Positions 674-13,575 of a stretch of DNA of 20,105 nucleotides are shown here, in pieces. Numbering within the stretch: the first letter of the stretch is position 1; each line of letters starts with the position of its first letter. Source of the stretch: a virus. The notes under the pieces are model-generated. The model saw only the letters and a program-made list of their open reading frames with translations. It did not search any database and had not been told where the DNA came from. The stretch lies in UHGV virus genome UHGV-0364294. One strand, 5' to 3'. The position numbers were made by a program, and so were the translations under genes.

Positions 674-961
674 CTACGATGCAAGAATCCATACCAATAA
701 GCATCCGATAATTGGGAAAGAAAAATCCATAAGGCTTCCTACATCCCACACGCGTGGATCAAAACCACCCCACCACGGCATATTCATACGCTTGCCATGC
801 CCGAACATTTCAATCCAGCGATATTCTGCCTGGGTGTGTTCACGCGCAATGAAGAACGTACAACCGGCTATCGCACCGTAAGCCCAGTTTCCGGTAAAAA
901 GACCAATCAGTACCTGCGCAGCCACAGCACAAAACGCATGAAGGAAAGGTGTTATATCCAT
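674..961 (-). CDS. Small integral membrane protein (95 aa, about 3 predicted TM segments), unknown function; candidate lysogenic-conversion or exclusion moron
   Basis: ATG at 959-961 preceded on the minus strand by AAGGAG with 5-nt spacing, immediately after the tailspike stop. Hydrophobic stretches FLHAFCAVAAQVLIGLF, AYGAIAGCTFFIA and FSFPIIGCLLVWILAS. The longer ORF in the track (start 1030) overlaps the tailspike and has no RBS. Confidence 0.6.
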   Translation of the reverse strand: MDITPFLHAFCAVAAQVLIGLFTGNWAYGAIAGCTFFIAREHTQAEYRWIEMFGHGKRMNMPWWGGFDPRVWDVGSLMDFSFPIIGCLLVWILAS

Positions 962-995
962 TATCGCTCCTTTAACATAAGGATAAATAAACACA

Positions 996-3134
996 TCATA
1001 AAATAGATTTCGTCTTTGTAACAATAACATCTACAAAATCGCCTGCAGATATAGCTGATGGTACTGTATCTGCAAGAGTAATCTTTCCTGAAGAGATGCT
1101 TTGCACATCTAATAATTTATTTTCAATCCCATCCGTATATACCAATTTGATATCACTGAGTGGAGGGTAATAAGTGATTGTTCCTTGGTATACATATATT
1201 TCACTACCTGAAATCGATTTCACTACATACCTGCCCCTTACAAGATTAATTTTGAGTTCAGATAAATCGGTTTTATAACAGGTAATTCCTGAACCAATGT
1301 TAGCCATACTAATATCAGTATCACTATAATAAGTAAGTGCTTTCCCTTGTTTTAAAGTAAAAGTATTTTTACTTTTCCTTGGTAAGGATGTGCTATTTTT
1401 GTAATATCTACCAGTAAAGCATAGCCATGAAAATGCAGTATTCACTACATTACCACCAGAATACACAGCTAAACGAATTGCACTAACTGGAACCCCTTCA
1501 TTATTAATCCTGATCTTAATGGAAGAAATATTAACAGCAGTGACATACCTATGGTTGGCAGAATCCCATTGCATAGAAGAAGTTATGGCTTCTGTTTGTG
1601 AGGTTATGACATTCCCATCTCTATCTAATGCATACAGGTAAATGCGAAACGATGCCGTATCTGCTGAGAATGTAAACATATCACCATTTCTTACTGGTAC
1701 ATCTCCAGATTCCCATAACAACCCAAAATTCCGCATAAAAGCAAACTTAGAAGAAACCAGGTGACGGATATTATATAAACCATCAACATCTGTTTGATAT
1801 GCTAATGCACCAACTTCTCCATTGTTAGCACTGGATATAAATGGGGTGTTAGCATTTAAAGAAAACAATGTTACTTCATCGGATATATTTTCCTGAATAT
1901 GAAATACTGCATTCCCCTTGCCATTATCAGTTACCTCGACATAAGTGTAAGGCGATGGATTGTATGGCTCATTTGTATACGCAGGAGATGAAAGCCATGT
2001 AGCTTCAATTGAGTTATTCCACGTATATTCACCAAAGTTAATTATCAACTGTTGGTTAGTTGGGGATGATGGATATCGTTCAAAACGAAACCCGTAGAAG
2101 TAATTGTTATCACCTCTTTGAATATCAATTTTACCTGCCCCCTCCATAGTTCCACCATAAAACTTATTGTGGTTATGATGATATGGATTATCAGCGAAAA
2201 TGATATTATTCGTACGATTCAGATAAAAATAGTTTTCATTTATCCATCCTTTCTCAACTCCAAGAAAATGAATTGTATCGACCTTTTTCAGGTTAAAGGT
2301 TGAGTATGCTATTGAATAATCCGTCGATGCCACCGAAGCATTATAATTTGCATATAACTGTAAGTAGTCGCAACGCTCAATGTTTATATGCTGCCCTTTT
2401 GCCCCGATAATACGAATATCCGGTGTCGTTTCAGATGAAATACCAGAATTTCTGATAATCGTTCCGAAGTTTTGTCTTGGGTTGTTAGGGTTTGATGCAT
2501 TCCCGCCAAGCAATACCCCTATTCCTGAGTGGGATATGGTAAAAACAGCATTGGTCATTTCGAGGCTGACATTACGAAGATTTAATGTCTCCGTAATAAT
2601 AAAATTACCTTCCGCTCGTAATGTTCTGGATGATTCTCGTGCATATTCTGCAGCCAAGATCAATGCAGATGTATCATCTGTTATACCATCGCCTTTTGCC
2701 CCCCACCCTCTTACATCACAATCGTCCCTCCACCGAGATATCTGCAATTCAGGATATTTTTTAGCTCCATCCGGGTCTTCTAATTGCTGCCGTAGTTGAT
2801 CAGGGTCATACTTCAGCACATTCGGAAAATAGAACTGCTGTGTACCATACGCATCATAAACAGCCATAGAATGGCCTTGCACAGTTACGAACTTGGCAAT
2901 CTGTCCGTTATATACCGGATATCCAGCAGCGTTAATGATGATTGGTTGCGAAACAGGAACGTGAGAGCCGTCTTCGTTCTCTATATAAACCTGAATCTGG
3001 TTTTCAGGATTTACCGGGTCAGTGTCAATTTTACCGATATAAATTTTGCCATTAGCTACGGCTTTAAAAGAACGCGCCATAGTGAAGAGTTGCGAAGGCA
3101 TGCTCACTACAACATTGGCTGTAATGTCTGTCAT
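996..3134 (-). CDS. Tailspike protein: P22 gp9-type N-terminal head-binding domain fused to a pectate-lyase-like beta-helix receptor-binding/depolymerase domain
   Basis: The N-terminus [11 protein letters not shown]...[36 protein letters not shown]...[12 protein letters not shown]...NVLKYDPDQ matches the P22 tailspike N-terminal domain as I recall it. Downstream, the motif [16 protein letters not shown] is typical of pectate-lyase-superfamily depolymerase domains. Length 712 aa. Confidence 0.9.
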
Positions 3135-3818: not shown

Positions 3819-3840
3819 AGCCGGGTCACTCCGGCTTTTT
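3819..3840 (+). terminator. Intrinsic terminator (possibly bidirectional) between the convergent 3633-3812 and 3826-4191 genes
   Basis: Stem AGCCGG (3819-3824), loop GTCACT, stem CCGGCT (3831-3836), followed by TTTTT. It overlaps the 3' end of the minus-strand gene. Confidence 0.6.
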
Positions 3841-4191
3841 GATATGTCGCTCGCAGAACTCAACAAGCCTGCTCATTAAGTAGCAGTAAGTCTCGTTGGC
3901 TCTTCCTGGTTCAACATCAACACCTACCCTTGAGCAGATATCGAATGCCATGTGAGCGCACTCATGGGCAATAGTAGATAGTTTGCCATTGAACACGCCT
4001 ATCACATGAAAAACACCATTCTCGCTACTCATTGTATGAGACGCTCCGTTGGCGTCCGAGTCATGCACGTCAACGCCAAGTTTTTGATGCAGGCGTTGCC
4101 ATTCTGGAAAGTCTCTACAAAACACAATTGTACCGCTCTCAAAGAGCGGAACGAGCATCTTTGGTACGTTTCCAATGTTAACTTTTTTCAT
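3826..4191 (-). CDS. Small HExxH protein (121 aa), putative zinc metallopeptidase-like (ImmA/IrrE- or SprT-like motif); function unknown
   Basis: Motif TIAHECAHMAF (hydrophobic-AHExxH). A weak RBS (AGGA) precedes the ATG at 4191; an alternative start is the Met at 4158. It occupies the sieA position between the gp16-like gene and mnt. Confidence 0.5.
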   Translation of the reverse strand: MKKVNIGNVPKMLVPLFESGTIVFCRDFPEWQRLHQKLGVDVHDSDANGASHTMSSENGVFHVIGVFNGKLSTIAHECAHMAFDICSRVGVDVEPGRANETYCYLMSRLVEFCERHIKKPE

Positions 4192-4225
4192 GGTATCCTG
4201 CGCAAAACTAAGGAGAGTTAATTAT

Positions 4226-4711
4226 ATGAAAAAATCACTGTTAATTATCCCGCTTCTGCTGGCTGGGTGCGCAAAAGTAAGCGACTATCAGGCAAGTTGC
4301 GAGCAACGCTATCCAAAGCTTAGCGATATGGCTAATTGCCTTGATGCCAGCTTGAAGAACGACTCTCGCATGGCATCAGCACCAACACCTAAGCTGTATG
4401 TCCTTGCTGCGAAGATGCTCGGGCAAGGTGTCGATGAAGGCAAGATAAGTGACACACAGGCAAGACTTGAACTTCAGAATCTTTATGTTCAATTACAAAG
4501 CCAAGAACAAGCACAACAAATAGCACAAAGCCAAGCATTCCAGCAGGCTTTATTGAATTATCAGGCTGTAAACACAATGCAAGCGATCGAGCAAAAAGCG
4601 CGCCAGCCTGTTATAACTCAACCTTACCCAACACGCGTTGACACATATACAAACTGCAATTCAGGATTTGGAAACACGGTAACATGCAACAGTAGCAGTA
4701 ATATCAGATAG
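4226..4711 (+). CDS. Phage-encoded secreted lipoprotein (161 aa) with a Q-rich predicted coiled-coil segment; candidate superinfection-exclusion or lysogenic-conversion protein
   Basis: ATG at 4226 preceded by AAGGAGAG (4210-4217). The N-terminus MKKSLLIIPLLLAGC has a signal peptide and lipobox (LAGC). The track ORF start at 4175 lacks an RBS. Confidence 0.65.
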   Translation: MKKSLLIIPLLLAGCAKVSDYQASCEQRYPKLSDMANCLDASLKNDSRMASAPTPKLYVLAAKMLGQGVDEGKISDTQARLELQNLYVQLQSQEQAQQIAQSQAFQQALLNYQAVNTMQAIEQKARQPVITQPYPTRVDTYTNCNSGFGNTVTCNSSSNIR

Positions 4712-8682: not shown

Positions 8683-9141
8683 CTATCTCCCGTGATTCAG
8701 GAAGTCGATTAGTTCTTCGCGTGTGGCGCTGTAAAACGTCACGTCATCCACGCCTTTAAAGTATTTCTTGATGGTTCCTACACGATTAAGGCCAATCATT
8801 GCGCAGTACATCTGCCCGTGGCGGAATTTGCGTGCAGCGAACGATGTGACACACTGAACAGTGGTGTTAGTCAGAATGTATCGCCAGAACGCCAGCCCGA
8901 TTTCCTTGCTGAATCCACGAACCTCTGGCAGGTACATGGCGTGGCAATCAAAGGTCAAAGGCTGAATCTCCTGATAGTAAACAATGCCGCCGAACTGCCC
9001 GTGCACGTTCACCTCGAAGTAACGGCATTCAGGCTTGTAGTCGTATCCATCACCGTTGTTGCTCCCGGCAATAATGTCAGGGTGATTTCCGACTGCTTCG
9101 ATCAGGTCGATGTTTCGCGTTGGGTTGAACTGAATCATCAC
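8683..9141 (-). CDS. P22 gp14-like protein (positional homolog, virion assembly/ejection-associated)
   Basis: 152-aa ORF directly downstream of the tail needle gene (start overlaps the needle stop), upstream of the gp7-like gene, as in P22. Confidence 0.55.
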
Positions 9142-10091
9142 TGCTCCGCGATTATCTTGATGGTTGTGGCAGTAAACGCCGCCACATTTGACTGGATGGT
9201 TAACGTACTGCCATTTGTGGCAAGAAAGCCGTCTTTATCCACGCTGAAGAACGTAGCTAACAGGATGTTATCGGTTGTTGTCGCCGAGTTGCGACTGCTT
9301 ACCAGTGTGTCAGGAACAGATCCGGAAAAGGTTAGCTGCATTGACCTGTTTGCGGTTCCGCTGGGCCACGTCCCGACAATCGACAGCTTGAAGAACAGGG
9401 TTTTGTTCTCGTTGAAAACAACCATCTTGTTGTTATCAGTATCGAAGAATGGTGCCAACGTCCCGGATGACGGCGTGAGCGTTTTCAGCAGGCTAACAAG
9501 GTTGGTCGGCGCTGTTGGAATGGTTACCGATACTCCTGAGTAAACAACCTCTGATTTCTTGCGCGTGGTGGCATACTCAAGCGCAGATATTCTTGTTGAG
9601 TGATCACCAACTGTGCTTTGTAGCGTCGAAATACTTCCCTCTGCCGCTGTGAGCCTGGTATCAAGTGCGTTGATATCGGTTGTATTCTGAGTTATTCGCG
9701 CATCATGGTTTGCTAACTCAGATTCATTGGCAGCAATTCGCGTCTCGTGATCAGCCAGCTCTGTTTCGGCAGCCGTAATCCTTGTTTCATGATCTGCAAG
9801 AGTGCTTTCCGCTGCTGCGATTCTATGTTCATGATTGACGAGAGTTGCTTCAGCAGCAGCAATTCTGGATTCATGGTCTGCAAGGGTGACATCCTGCTCA
9901 TCATTCTTCACCTGTGCATCATAAGCTCCCTTCCCTGCTTCGTTGGCCTTGTTAGCCACGTTACCAACATCAGTACCCTGTGCGATAACGTACAGCAGAT
10001 ATGACTGCGAGAAGATATTGCGTGGAAGGACTGATGTGTCGAGTCGTGTAGCCTGAATGATTACCGGCTCATTGAGATTCGAATCAGCCAT
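9138..10091 (-). CDS. Tail needle (P22 gp26-like) with central coiled-coil repeats and an extended beta-rich C-terminal domain
   Basis: The real start is the ATG at 10089-10091 (TAATG overlap with the gp10-like stop). [43 protein letters not shown]...[14 protein letters not shown] matches the P22 gp26 N-terminus as I recall it. 317 aa versus about 233 aa in P22. The track ORF of 351 aa is over-extended. Confidence 0.85.
9636..9887 (-). repeat. About six imperfect tandem 42-nt repeats encoding 14-residue (two-heptad) units of the tail-needle coiled coil
   Basis: Protein repeats [14 protein letters not shown] / [14 protein letters not shown] / [14 protein letters not shown] / [14 protein letters not shown] / [14 protein letters not shown] / [14 protein letters not shown]; the 42-nt periodicity is visible in the DNA. 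Confidence 0.7.
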
Positions 10092-11509
10092 TACTCGATC
10101 CTTATCTGGCAGCCAGACAGAGTGACAGGTGACTTCGTGATAACGCGCAATTTGAAGCCGACATTTTTCCTGATGCGCCCGACTCGCTTCCACAAAACAC
10201 GCTTGTCGTAAACGAACGGTTCATTCTGCTCAATCATCTGCTCACGACCGTAATTGATGCCATCAGTGGTTGCCGAGAGGAACAGGCGGTCGGCGTACTG
10301 AGCGACCCCCGTCGATGATTCCACCTCCAGATCAAAGCATCTGGCGTTATCTGCTTTGAAGAGTGGAGTAAACAGCAGGTGTTCTTGCTGTAGCCCATAC
10401 TGGCTGCTGATGTCGAACTGCAATTTTCCGGTCACGGACTCCAGCTTATCGCCGCACGTTATCTGATTGCCTTCGTAAATGAAGTCGATAGCGCGGTACA
10501 CATCGTCATACAGGCCTGTTTTCAGCACACACCATTGCGGACCATTGGCGCTTGAAGATGCGTCGTACACAAGGACGTGACGCGAAAGATGGATAATCAG
10601 CAACTCATGAGCATCAAACCGCAACGATTCCATCACACCATCAGCCAGTTCATCAGCAGTGTAGGAGCGGAGGATTTTCTCAATGCTCGCGCTGGCGATT
10701 GGTGATACCTGACCGGAGCCGATGATGTATACAGACGGAGCACCTGTTGCCGGATTGCTGATAAACGCATAGGAATCAGCAAACGGCGTTTTGCAGTAAG
10801 TTCCGGCAATGCCTTTCTGCACCATCAGTGATGGCTGTGCGACATACAAAGCGGCACCAACGGTGGTTGCCCCAGTCAGGGAAAAATATTCAATCGTCGA
10901 TGAACCAAAGCAGACGATGAAGTCTCGCCATGTTCCGATGCCGAGGATACCGTCCGGCTGCGATTCTGCGCGATATTGTGCGCTGTAACGGTCAGGATGC
11001 GATTCGTCTTCAAGGTCAGTGATAAACCATGAATCCGTGCCGTCTTTTGACCACGCATAACGCCCACGTAAACGCGTAATGTCGCGAACCGAACCTAACT
11101 CATACTGAGTGAATCCGCTGTCTGTAGGCCAGTTTGAGACTGTTTTAACCGTTCCATCATAGCGATACTCGACCAGTTGACCATTAACGCCTACCGCCTG
11201 AGATGTTCGACCATGCGCCATTGATACGCGACCACTTCCGGCAACATCACCGACCTCGCTTTCGCCCTTATACAACTTGCCACCGCAAACGCGATAAACA
11301 GCATTCTGCGCCATGTTGTACTCGACACCGCGCGATACACCATTCACATCAGAGCGTTTGGCAATGCCAGGGAATGAGCGAAGATATCCACTGCTGTTGA
11401 GGATTTCTTTGGGGGTTGCCAGCATATTCACTGGCAGATAGTCGATATAGTCGGCGTTTCGAAAGTCTTTGCCGACACCTTTCATAAGCGGAAGTTGCTG
11501 AATCGGCAT
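10091..11509 (-). CDS. Tail accessory/hub protein, P22 gp10-like
   Basis: 472 aa (same as P22 gp10); position between the gp4-like gene and the tail needle. Confidence 0.8.
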
Positions 11510-12009
11510 TATTCGCTCCCGTTATCGCAAGGTTCCTTTCGCTGGAAGTAATTCCAACCGTTCCACTTCGCCAACTGGTTACCACTACCAACAGGCATAC
11601 GGTTTGGATAACCGGACTTACATTTAGCGGCTTTTGCTCTGTCCATTGCAGACAGTTTGACGAGTCTCTCTTTCCCGTATCTGGCAGTGGTTATAAGTTT
11701 TGCAGACGCTTCCAGCGCATAATCCGGAGCAATGCGGCAGGCAAGGTTGAAAATGACGGCATTGATAGCGTTATTTGATAAACCGTGCTCATCGCCCGGA
11801 TCTGGAGCGACATCTGCATCAGCGAAAATGTAGCCAACGTTGATACCAGGTGACACATCACCGCCAAGCCATTCAGCCATCATCATTTCAAGGTCGTTGA
11901 CGCCGTCTTCCATAGACTGCGGTTCGACATCGGTTAACGTGGCATTTGATGCCACACCGAGCTTACGTAATGCCGCAAGAACTAAATCACCCTTCGTTGT
12001 CAGGTTCAT
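11509..12009 (-). CDS. Tail accessory (head-completion) protein, P22 gp4-like
   Basis: Start at 12007-12009 with AAGGCGG 7-8 nt upstream. [33 protein letters not shown]...[14 protein letters not shown] matches P22 gp4 as I recall it. The 196-aa track ORF has an N-terminal extension with no RBS. Confidence 0.85.
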
Positions 12010-12235
12010 CTGCTGCCGCCTTAGGTTTTCGACCAGGCTTTTTACGCTGTTTTTCTTCTGGCTCTGGCTCTGGCTCTGGCTCTGGCTCTGCAACATCATT
12101 CAGAAGATTATCAGGATGTGCAAACCAGCCAGCATCCAGATATTCCTGAAGCTCTTCGGCTTTCACGATTTCAAAGTCGTATCCAACGCCTTTCCATTTC
12201 TTCATGTCGCCATGACGAAAGATCATGTGTGTCAT
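11987..12235 (-). CDS. Small hypothetical protein (82 aa) with a (EP)n linker and a basic C-terminal tail; overlaps the gp4 start by 23 nt
   Basis: ATG (MTHMIF...) preceded by GGAGA with 5-nt spacing, directly after the coat-distal hairpin. The product contains [12 protein letters not shown] followed by [11 protein letters not shown]. No homolog recognised. Confidence 0.4.
12061..12090. repeat. Perfect hexanucleotide tandem repeat (GCTCTG)x5
   Basis: Read directly from the sequence; encodes (EP)n in the small-ORF frame and (SQ)n in the gp4 frame. Confidence 0.95.
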
Positions 12236-12249
12236 GCTTGTCTCCAGAT

Positions 12250-12271
12250 AAAAAAGGGAGCCGAAGCTCCC
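12250..12271 (-). terminator. Intrinsic terminator/attenuator-like hairpin immediately downstream of the coat gene
   Basis: Minus strand reads GGGAGC-TTCG-GCTCCC followed by TTTTTT (GC-rich 6-bp stem, tetraloop, T6), 8 nt after the coat stop codon. Confidence 0.55.
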
Positions 12272-12279
12272 TCTGGTTA

Positions 12280-13575
12280 TCACGCAGTCTGGTTAGGCAG
12301 ACCAACACCAATTGCCTCTGGTCGTACAGCACATGCTGAATACCACACAGCAATACGGCACTTACCAGACAGAGTGTTGATATCACCCTGCGTTGCGAAG
12401 ATGCCGTTAACACCAATACCTGGAATGCTGAAGGAAGAAGTTTTCATGCCAGCAAACAGTTCATGGGTTACCGGAATCGGCTGAGACAGCAGGCGGATTG
12501 AGTCATCAGCCCAGAACACGTTAGCGGTGGTTGTTGCCACGTTCAGAACGTTTACCGGAGTGGTATTAGCAAGAGAGGTGTTTACGTTAGCGTAAGCCTT
12601 CTCTTCTTTTGTCAGTGACGCGTCATCCAGCGCAATCGGCTTCGGCGTGATTTCGATGTGAGTACTATCGATCACTCGGGTGATTGAGAAAGTCGCATCA
12701 TCAGTCAGCACGTTCTTCGCCATCTGAGACAGGAATTTCACACCAGTGAAGCTGATTTTGTCGCCGCGCTTAAATCCGGTGGTGGAGGATACGGTCACCG
12801 TTGCAACACGGTTGTCGACGTTCTCCTTGTTACCATCGGTATCAAGGGTGTATGCCTGCGGCTTAAACTTCTGCGCTCCAGACACAGTTACACCAGTAGC
12901 GGTTGACTTGGTAACTGCCGGAAGTTTCGGTGAGCGAAGAATTTCATCAAAGCCAGCAATCTGACGCTGAATAGTACCGTTGCGATACGCTTCTTCAGGA
13001 ACGCGACCGAAGATGTCACCATCTACCAGGTTGCGGCCTGCTTTGCGGTAATCGTCAGGATTCAGGAAGTAACTGATGCCCATATCGCGGTTTAGCTCAC
13101 GGGAGAACATCAGTCGCTCTGCATCAGACACAAAATCCCATCCAGACAGGCCAGTAGATGGACCAATTGCGCGGGTATCGTGAACAACAAGCGAGCCCAT
13201 TTCAGTTGCCTGTTTGGCAATTGCTGACTCAATGTTATTCGCCAGTTTTTTGGCGGATGCCTGGATGCGGCGACGGTAAGAACGCTCATCACGCAGGTCA
13301 TCTGCACGAAGCTCGAAGAAATCGTTATCCGGATCGCCCATGTTGCATTTCACGGAGAGTTCCAGAATCCCGGTTGCGTTGTCAGTTAAATCCCAGCCAG
13401 TCTGGGTTGGCGCTTCCTGCTCAACAGGCATCCACACGGTGTTGCTTGAACGCTGCATTGATTCTGCCGGAGGGGTGTATTTTGTCACTTTGGACGCCAT
13501 TGGCGTCAGGTTCTGGACGGTTTCGATGATTTCATCCAGAGCATATGTGACCAGTTGACCTTCATTTAATGCCAT
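12280..13575 (-). CDS. Major capsid (coat) protein, P22 gp5-like (HK97 fold)
   Basis: 431 aa; [20 protein letters not shown]...[15 protein letters not shown]...[10 protein letters not shown]...GVGLPNQTA matches the P22 coat protein as I recall it; TAATG overlap with the scaffold gene. Confidence 0.92.

Follow-up and report, generated by a model that had tools for sequence, protein, structure and literature searches.

The stretch analyzed here, 20,105 nucleotides of UHGV virus genome UHGV-0364294 (hereafter the window), carries the genes of a P22-like late operon: small and large terminase, portal, scaffold, coat, gp4, gp10, tail needle, a DUF2824 protein and three ejection proteins, together with an immI-like region and the tailspike. 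The needle gene (a homologue of P22 gp26 and Sf6 gp9, of HS1 type according to its ORF, identical RefSeq DNA and identity to the HS1 needle) occupies positions 9138-10091 on the minus strand. ORF calling and translation give an ATG at 10091, a stop at 9138-9140 and 317 codons plus the stop. The gene directly upstream, also on the minus strand, encodes the gp10 tail hub (10091-11509, 472 aa; PF11134, E 3e-299, and annotation), and its stop is overlapped by the needle ATG by one base (TAATG). The gene directly downstream is a DUF2824 gene in the gp14 position (8683-9138, minus strand, 151 aa; PF11039, E 1.5e-52, and annotation), whose start is overlapped by the needle stop (TGATG). The gp4 gene, assigned from gene order and Pfam/annotation, lies at 11509-12099 (minus strand). 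The order on the minus strand is gp4, gp10, needle, DUF2824 and then gp7-, gp20- and gp16-like genes, with overlapping stops and starts. The needle gene is thus found where gp26-family genes are expected, directly after gp4 and gp10 and ahead of the ejection-protein genes.

The DNA of the needle gene is 100% identical to that of RefSeq genes in Escherichia coli chromosomes, whose product is named "tail needle knob protein" (WP_032333369.1). In an E. coli chromosome carrying a 100% identical needle gene, the late operon adjoins dacD. The late operon in the window belongs to a P22-like E. coli prophage. Compared with locus L001, the window differs by an indel and a replaced tailspike segment.

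Several observations concern the neighboring genes. The tailspike ORF (996-3134, minus strand, 712 aa) has the head-binding domain PF09008 at aa 1-113. No DNA matching its receptor-binding part (window positions 958-2777) is present in the near-identical prophage carried by E. coli Ecol_881, whose tailspike has 663 aa; the tailspike body has been swapped behind a conserved N-terminus. A perfect hexanucleotide repeat on the coding strand, (GAGCCA) x 5.7 at 12057-12090, encodes (Glu-Pro)n in a 98-aa ORF (11987-12283, minus strand) that lies between the coat and gp4 genes and has no Pfam match. The alignment with the Ecol_881 prophage, otherwise 98-99.7% identical, breaks exactly at this repeat in BLAST, and the protein annotated there has 92 aa. 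Three further ORFs without Pfam match are found at 3826-4191 (minus strand, 121 aa), 4175-4711 (plus strand, 178 aa) and 674-1030 (minus strand, 118 aa). They fall in the variable stretch that separates the tailspike from the ejection-protein genes, or past the tailspike, a location where exclusion or lysogenic-conversion genes are frequent in P22-like phages. Finally, near-identical gp10-needle segments are joined in loci L002-L016 to two unrelated sets of head genes, one of P22 type as in the window (499-aa terminase, 721-aa portal, 431-aa coat) and one of Sf6 type (471-aa terminase, 732-aa portal, 417-aa coat). The combination points to a mosaic boundary upstream of gp4/gp10.

Domain layout of the needle and comparison with known needles

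Residues 1-55 (9927-10091, minus strand) correspond to the N-terminal virion-binding (plug) domain, according to matches with 5BU5 and P22 gp26 and to many invariant columns in a 23-sequence alignment. In phmmer searches of the PDB, the HK620 needle (5BU5) is nearly identical over aa 1-79, and P22 gp26 chains, including 2POH, 3C9I and 8EAP, match at E 1e-41 to 2e-47. The alignment of P22 gp26 (2POH, 233 aa) covers residues 1-139 of the query only.

The plug is followed by the predicted coiled-coil shaft, aa 56-173 (9573-9926, minus strand), delimited from the heptad register, an AlphaFold2 helix and the 16 heptads of HS1. The register runs without a break over aa 56-171 (a/d positions A56, A59, N63, Q66, L70, H73 ... 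I168, L171). AlphaFold2, run on the 23-sequence alignment as a monomer, i.e., as a single chain of a predicted trimer, gives one helix at 42-176, in which pLDDT exceeds 90 for most of the shaft (blocks 61-160), then a beta-rich domain with seven strands. This model is weak at the N-terminus (pLDDT about 45-55) and in the knob (10-residue block means of 49-87), as expected for a chain outside its trimer. The register listing also places a polar-core motif, N63-x-x-Q66-D67, in the shaft; NxxQD is the reported Ca2+ site of P22 gp26 (PMC13580157). In addition, His recurs at every second core d position (H73, H87, H101, H115, H129 and H164), forming a regularly spaced polar core within aa 70-173 (9573-9884).

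Within the shaft, unit matrices, Tandem Repeats Finder, shuffles and junctions in relatives delimit five tandem units of 42 nt or 14 aa at aa 70-139 (9675-9884, minus strand), four of them clear and the last half-diverged. Units 1-4 (aa 70-125) agree pairwise at 8-11 of 14 residues and at 20-31 of 42 nt; unit 5 (aa 126-139) is weaker, with 5-7 of 14 residues. A degenerate repeat tail follows at aa 140-174 (9570-9674, minus strand), delimited from the unit matrices and from a junction in a 268-aa allele. It includes a marginal unit 6 (aa 140-153) and an extra copy shifted by 7 residues, hence out of register (aa 161-174). At the DNA level, the units are 48-74% identical to each other, and Tandem Repeats Finder reports a period of 42 with 3.0 copies at 9765-9888 and 68% matches.

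The C-terminal knob (aa 174-317; 9141-9572, minus strand), assigned from 4K6B, 3RWN, PF16532 and a residue check, has 144 aa, 28% of which are Ser or Thr. In the phmmer search of the PDB, residues 165-317 match the knobs of HS1 (4K6B, E 2e-88) and Sf6 (3RWN, E 2e-87) with three to four differences in 153 residues (~98% identity), and not one P22 gp26 or HK620 chain aligned with the C-terminal domain. The profile PF16532 (Phage_tail_NK, "Sf6-type phage tail needle knob") matches over positions 1-175 of 175 with 351.6 bits (cut-off 27; E 8.6e-106). In the HS1 knob, E181, K235, S283, D285, L290 and K312 hold three L-glutamate molecules and the S266-R267-N268 triad binds phosphate (Leavitt et al. 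2013, PMC3741392). All nine residues (HS1 numbering) are present in the window needle and are invariant in the 23-sequence alignment. Since the alignments of P22 gp26 and HK620 are confined to the N-terminal and coiled-coil part, the knob is supported as an extra domain rather than a diverged P22 tip. Its fold, a TNF-like jellyroll in the solved homologues, is near-certain given the ~98% identity to 4K6B and 3RWN.

Much of this layout had been anticipated by the sequence-only reading, which had proposed a 317-aa tail needle at exactly 9138-10091, with a gp26-like N-terminus and about 85 residues more than P22 gp26 (317 - 233 = 84). It had also judged the needle consistent with the knob-bearing class, on the basis of a C-terminal domain absent from P22 gp26; the profile score, the identity to the HS1 and Sf6 knobs and the full set of published glutamate-contact residues support this reading, as do the seven predicted strands and the restricted alignment of the P22 and HK620 chains. 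Two of its estimates need adjustment. The Ser/Thr-rich character of the C-terminal domain holds, but its size is 144 aa rather than about 130. Likewise, the 42-nt period is real, but its count of roughly six repeats was generous, four being clear, two degenerate and one out of register.

The closest known needle is that of HS1, the prophage of E. coli HS (EcHS_A0316; L013:30116-31069). It has the same length (317 aa), gene position and layout of 14-residue units, and is identical at 306 of 317 residues and 908 of 954 nt. The 11 substitutions (window residue first) are E8V, K54Q, K62R, A78E, V85I, D100E, A107D, T138A, N141D, D219V and V303G. Ser169 and Ala305, the residues that set HS1 apart from Sf6, are both found in the window needle. 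The prophage mosaics differ: terminase, portal, scaffold and coat are of P22 type in the window but of Sf6 type in HS1, and the tailspikes differ. The HS1 needle was described as a 317-aa protein with 16 heptads, compared to 11 in Sf6 and P22 (Leavitt et al. 2013, PMC3741392). The needle of the window is therefore an allele of the published HS1-type needle, not a new domain or class.

Sf6 gp9 (282 aa; knob 3RWN) has a homologous N-terminal domain and a near-identical knob with the same L-glutamate site, but its shaft is diverged in sequence and 35 residues (5 heptads) shorter, with 11 heptads instead of 16. At the DNA level, the match with the Sf6 needle gene has 90% identity but is limited to 79% of the gene and split into two pieces. 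The needles of P22 (gp26) and HK620 (233 aa; 2POH, 3C9I, 5BU5) resemble the window needle in the plug domain and in the first part of the coiled coil, where the NDEQD motif and the initial "LADHE.RI" unit are common to them, but their helical/beta tip is unrelated to the knob, and alignments with needles of this type end by about query residue 139-184. An engineered elongated gp26 fiber (4LIN, 300 aa), a laboratory construct with a P22 tip and devoid of knob, aligns to query residues 1-184 through its lengthened, repeat-containing helical core, which is consistent with a needle core that accepts added helical segments.

Among the matches listed, knob-type needles of 317 or 316 aa with 72-78% identity are found in Klebsiella aerogenes, Serratia marcescens and Serratia fonticola. 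A Klebsiella pneumoniae phage also carries one, with ~90% DNA identity over 79% of the gene. In a survey published in 2013, the P22-like phages reported to have this knob were all from Escherichia and Shigella.

The function of the needle can be proposed by analogy. The P22 needle plugs the tail channel after packaging, projects past the tailspikes and is released as DNA delivery starts (PMC3741392), and the tail structure of Sf6 shows needle N-termini within the channel of the gp8 hub (PMC9728967). By analogy with P22, Sf6 and HS1 (PMC3741392, PMC9728967), three chains would form a parallel coiled coil, whose N-terminus would plug the gp10 hub and retain the packaged DNA, while the shaft would extend past the tailspikes. 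At infection, the needle would be released and its tip could influence the speed of DNA delivery. P22 carrying the HS1 knob in place of its own tip is viable but releases K+ more slowly, and mutation of the glutamate site had no detected effect (PMC3741392).

Shaft length among related needles

From the 2,456 homologues retrieved in a search of a protein collection, the 120 best cluster representatives were inspected, the shaft of each protein being measured between the conserved residues flanking it. Among these best 120 of 2,456, total lengths form a ladder of 254, 268, 282, 289, 296, 303, 310, 317, 331, 338 and 345 aa. The shaft, which ranges from 41 to 132 residues, differs from that of the window by a multiple of 7 residues in 116 of the 120, and the knob has 144 aa in 118 of them. 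Copy number is therefore not invariant, the lengths being spread over 254-345 aa at intervals of 7 or 14 residues. Four proteins of the 120 (285, 298, 309 and 316 aa) have a shaft difference that is not a multiple of 7; these off-phase forms may be errors, pseudogenes or tolerated stutters. A single 324-aa entry results from an N-terminal extension and is not a shaft variant. Full-text searches of the literature on tail-needle length variation returned nothing specific beyond PMC3741392.

Junctions were mapped at the DNA level for seven variant alleles of the HS1 lineage, relative to the window units U1-U5. They include five independent in-register deletions, each located at a microhomology of 6-8 nt. 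Three distinct deletions give a 303-aa form, by junction of U4 to U5 within CGCGAAT, of U1 to U2 within AGAATTGC or of U2 to U3 within ATCATGAA. In a 289-aa form, 84 nt are deleted and U1 is joined to U3 within CATGAA. In a 268-aa form (L010), the deletion of 147 nt joins U4 to the out-of-register copy within TGATCAC, a shift by an odd number of heptads. Conversely, an 84-nt tandem duplication of U1-U2, perfect or with one mismatch, is present in the 345- and 331-aa forms. Every mapped deletion or duplication junction in relatives thus involves units of the repeat array, the partner in the 268-aa allele being the copy at aa 161-174. Sf6-type shafts also vary in blocks of 14 or 28 residues, from 282 aa down to 268 and 254 and up to 296, 310 and 338 aa.

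Two loci with needles of 303 aa (L003) and 289 aa (L009) are 99.91% identical over 20.9 kb. They align without interruption apart from a 42-nt offset in the repeat, and their needle genes show the same SNP pattern on both sides of it. Since these loci are near-identical apart from one 42-nt unit, some of the length changes are recent. The variant alleles sit in complete morphogenesis modules; several are found on 7-24 independent contigs and the 345-aa, 338-aa and 303c alleles on a single contig each. In addition, the first 420 nt of one 303-aa allele match the window except at position 273, apart from the 42-nt deletion, and its knob differs at ~5% of positions. The needle gene itself appears to be a mosaic joint as well.

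The same loci indicate which tailspikes accompany which needles. A 748-aa tailspike type, with copies 98-100% identical, is paired with needles of 303, 289 and 268 aa, a 655-aa type with needles of 303 and 289 aa, and an 825-aa type with needles of 303 and 331 aa. Furthermore, one and the same 303-aa needle protein is paired with two unrelated tailspikes. The possibility that needle length is matched to tailspike type was therefore rejected, on a small sample in which one type goes with several lengths; the length would not be matched to the receptor-binding protein.

Origin and meaning of the length variation

Overall, we are highly confident that the gene encodes a three-part needle of a P22-like E. 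coli prophage, of the HS1 subtype, whose shaft varies by whole units through in-register deletion and duplication. The comparison with relatives shows a shaft made of diverged 14-residue (two-heptad, 42-nt) units, whole numbers of which have been gained or lost. Deletion junctions fall in 6-8-nt stretches common to two units, and the length steps are of 14 and occasionally 7 residues with a constant plug and knob. The junction sequences suggest replication slippage or short-homology recombination as the source of these gains and losses. Products out of heptad phase would then be eliminated by selection, and each unit would alter the length of the needle by about 2 nm.

The earlier proposal that the 42-nt repeats are a substrate for recombinational length variation is supported, with a refinement. 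Length does vary, with breakpoints inside the units, but the process looks like slippage or short-homology recombination rather than classical homologous recombination. The longest exact match between any two units of the window allele is 8-10 nt. Classical RecA-type recombination between long identical repeats was rejected for this allele on that ground, and an origin by slippage or short homology is proposed because the units share only such short exact matches. However, RecA-type recombination is plausible for the alleles with perfect 84-nt duplications, since such repeats, once made by duplication, would permit ordinary homologous recombination.

Rather than neutral slippage filtered only by heptad phase, the length polymorphism could reflect adaptive tuning, for example of the reach of the knob past the tailspikes through O-antigen or capsule or of ejection kinetics, an explanation that we consider rather unlikely. 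Many independent events have been kept in intact prophages, which speaks for it, and a 2009 title by Bhardwaj reportedly states that stability correlates with coiled-coil length, which counts in the same direction. The tip and shaft composition of the needle also alter the kinetics of K+ release in P22 hybrids (PMC3741392). Such tuning is nevertheless at odds with the association of single tailspike types with several needle lengths, and with that of one 303-aa needle with two unrelated tailspikes. The tailspike data are compatible with a needle length tuned to ejection kinetics or to surface features of another kind. The variation, part of it recent, is observed; any phenotypic effect is putative.

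A second explanation does away with unit gain and loss altogether: the 14-residue period could be a by-product of the coiled-coil constraint, which favors hydrophobic residues or His at a/d positions, and have nothing to do with duplication or recombination. Over the whole shaft, identity at offset 42 is 0.49, compared to 0.295 +/- 0.025 in codon shuffles (z 7.7) and 0.419 +/- 0.023 in shuffles that preserve heptad positions (z 3.1). Heptad-preserving shuffles alone thus reach 0.42, so that much of the periodic signal comes from the heptad constraint, and the units share no more than 8-10 nt of exact identity. The observed value exceeds this constraint all the same, and does so more clearly for aa 70-139 alone (0.61 against 0.48 in heptad-position-preserving shuffles, z 4.2). 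The observed identity is reached by 5 of 5000 such shuffles for the whole shaft and by 0 of 5000 for aa 70-139. Furthermore, identity is 0.41 at offset 21 and 0.49 at offset 42, a period of 14 residues and not 7, and relatives differ by exact whole units with hybrid units at the junctions, some of them with perfect 84-nt duplications. The 42-nt period is therefore real, above chance and above what heptad constraints alone impose, and a mere by-product is very improbable.

The least credible explanation is that the length variants are assembly artefacts, tandem repeats having been collapsed or expanded in short-read assemblies: although several variants do come from short-read or metagenome assemblies, a few lie on one contig and the four odd-length forms may be errors, units diverged to 48-74% identity allow reads to be placed uniquely, variant proteins of identical sequence come from 7-24 independent contigs and also from NCBI assemblies, with contigs of up to ~1.3 Mb, the cloned and published needles of Sf6 (282 aa) and HS1 (317 aa) are already 35 residues apart, and random mis-assembly would not keep the heptad phase in 116 of the best 120 of 2,456 homologues.

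With unit gain and loss by in-register deletion and duplication as the preferred reading, the object itself is already known: the knob class, the length and heptad count of the HS1 needle and a range of 11-16 heptads have been published, and parts of the picture of shaft repeats and length variation may also be in print. The additions made here are incremental and concern a wider range, about 7-20 heptads (by the published count), a quantization by 14 residues, microhomology junctions, recent events and independence from the tailspike. As a more speculative proposal, which we hold to be improbable, the repeat array could be a built-in module for length variation, providing needles of about 7-20 heptads that would be selected on surface-layer reach or ejection kinetics independently of the tailspike. 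The practical outcome is a confident annotation of the gene as an HS1-type knobbed needle of a P22-like E. coli prophage. Beyond this annotation, the alleles found in related prophages constitute a natural series that is ready for testing the effect of needle length on infection.
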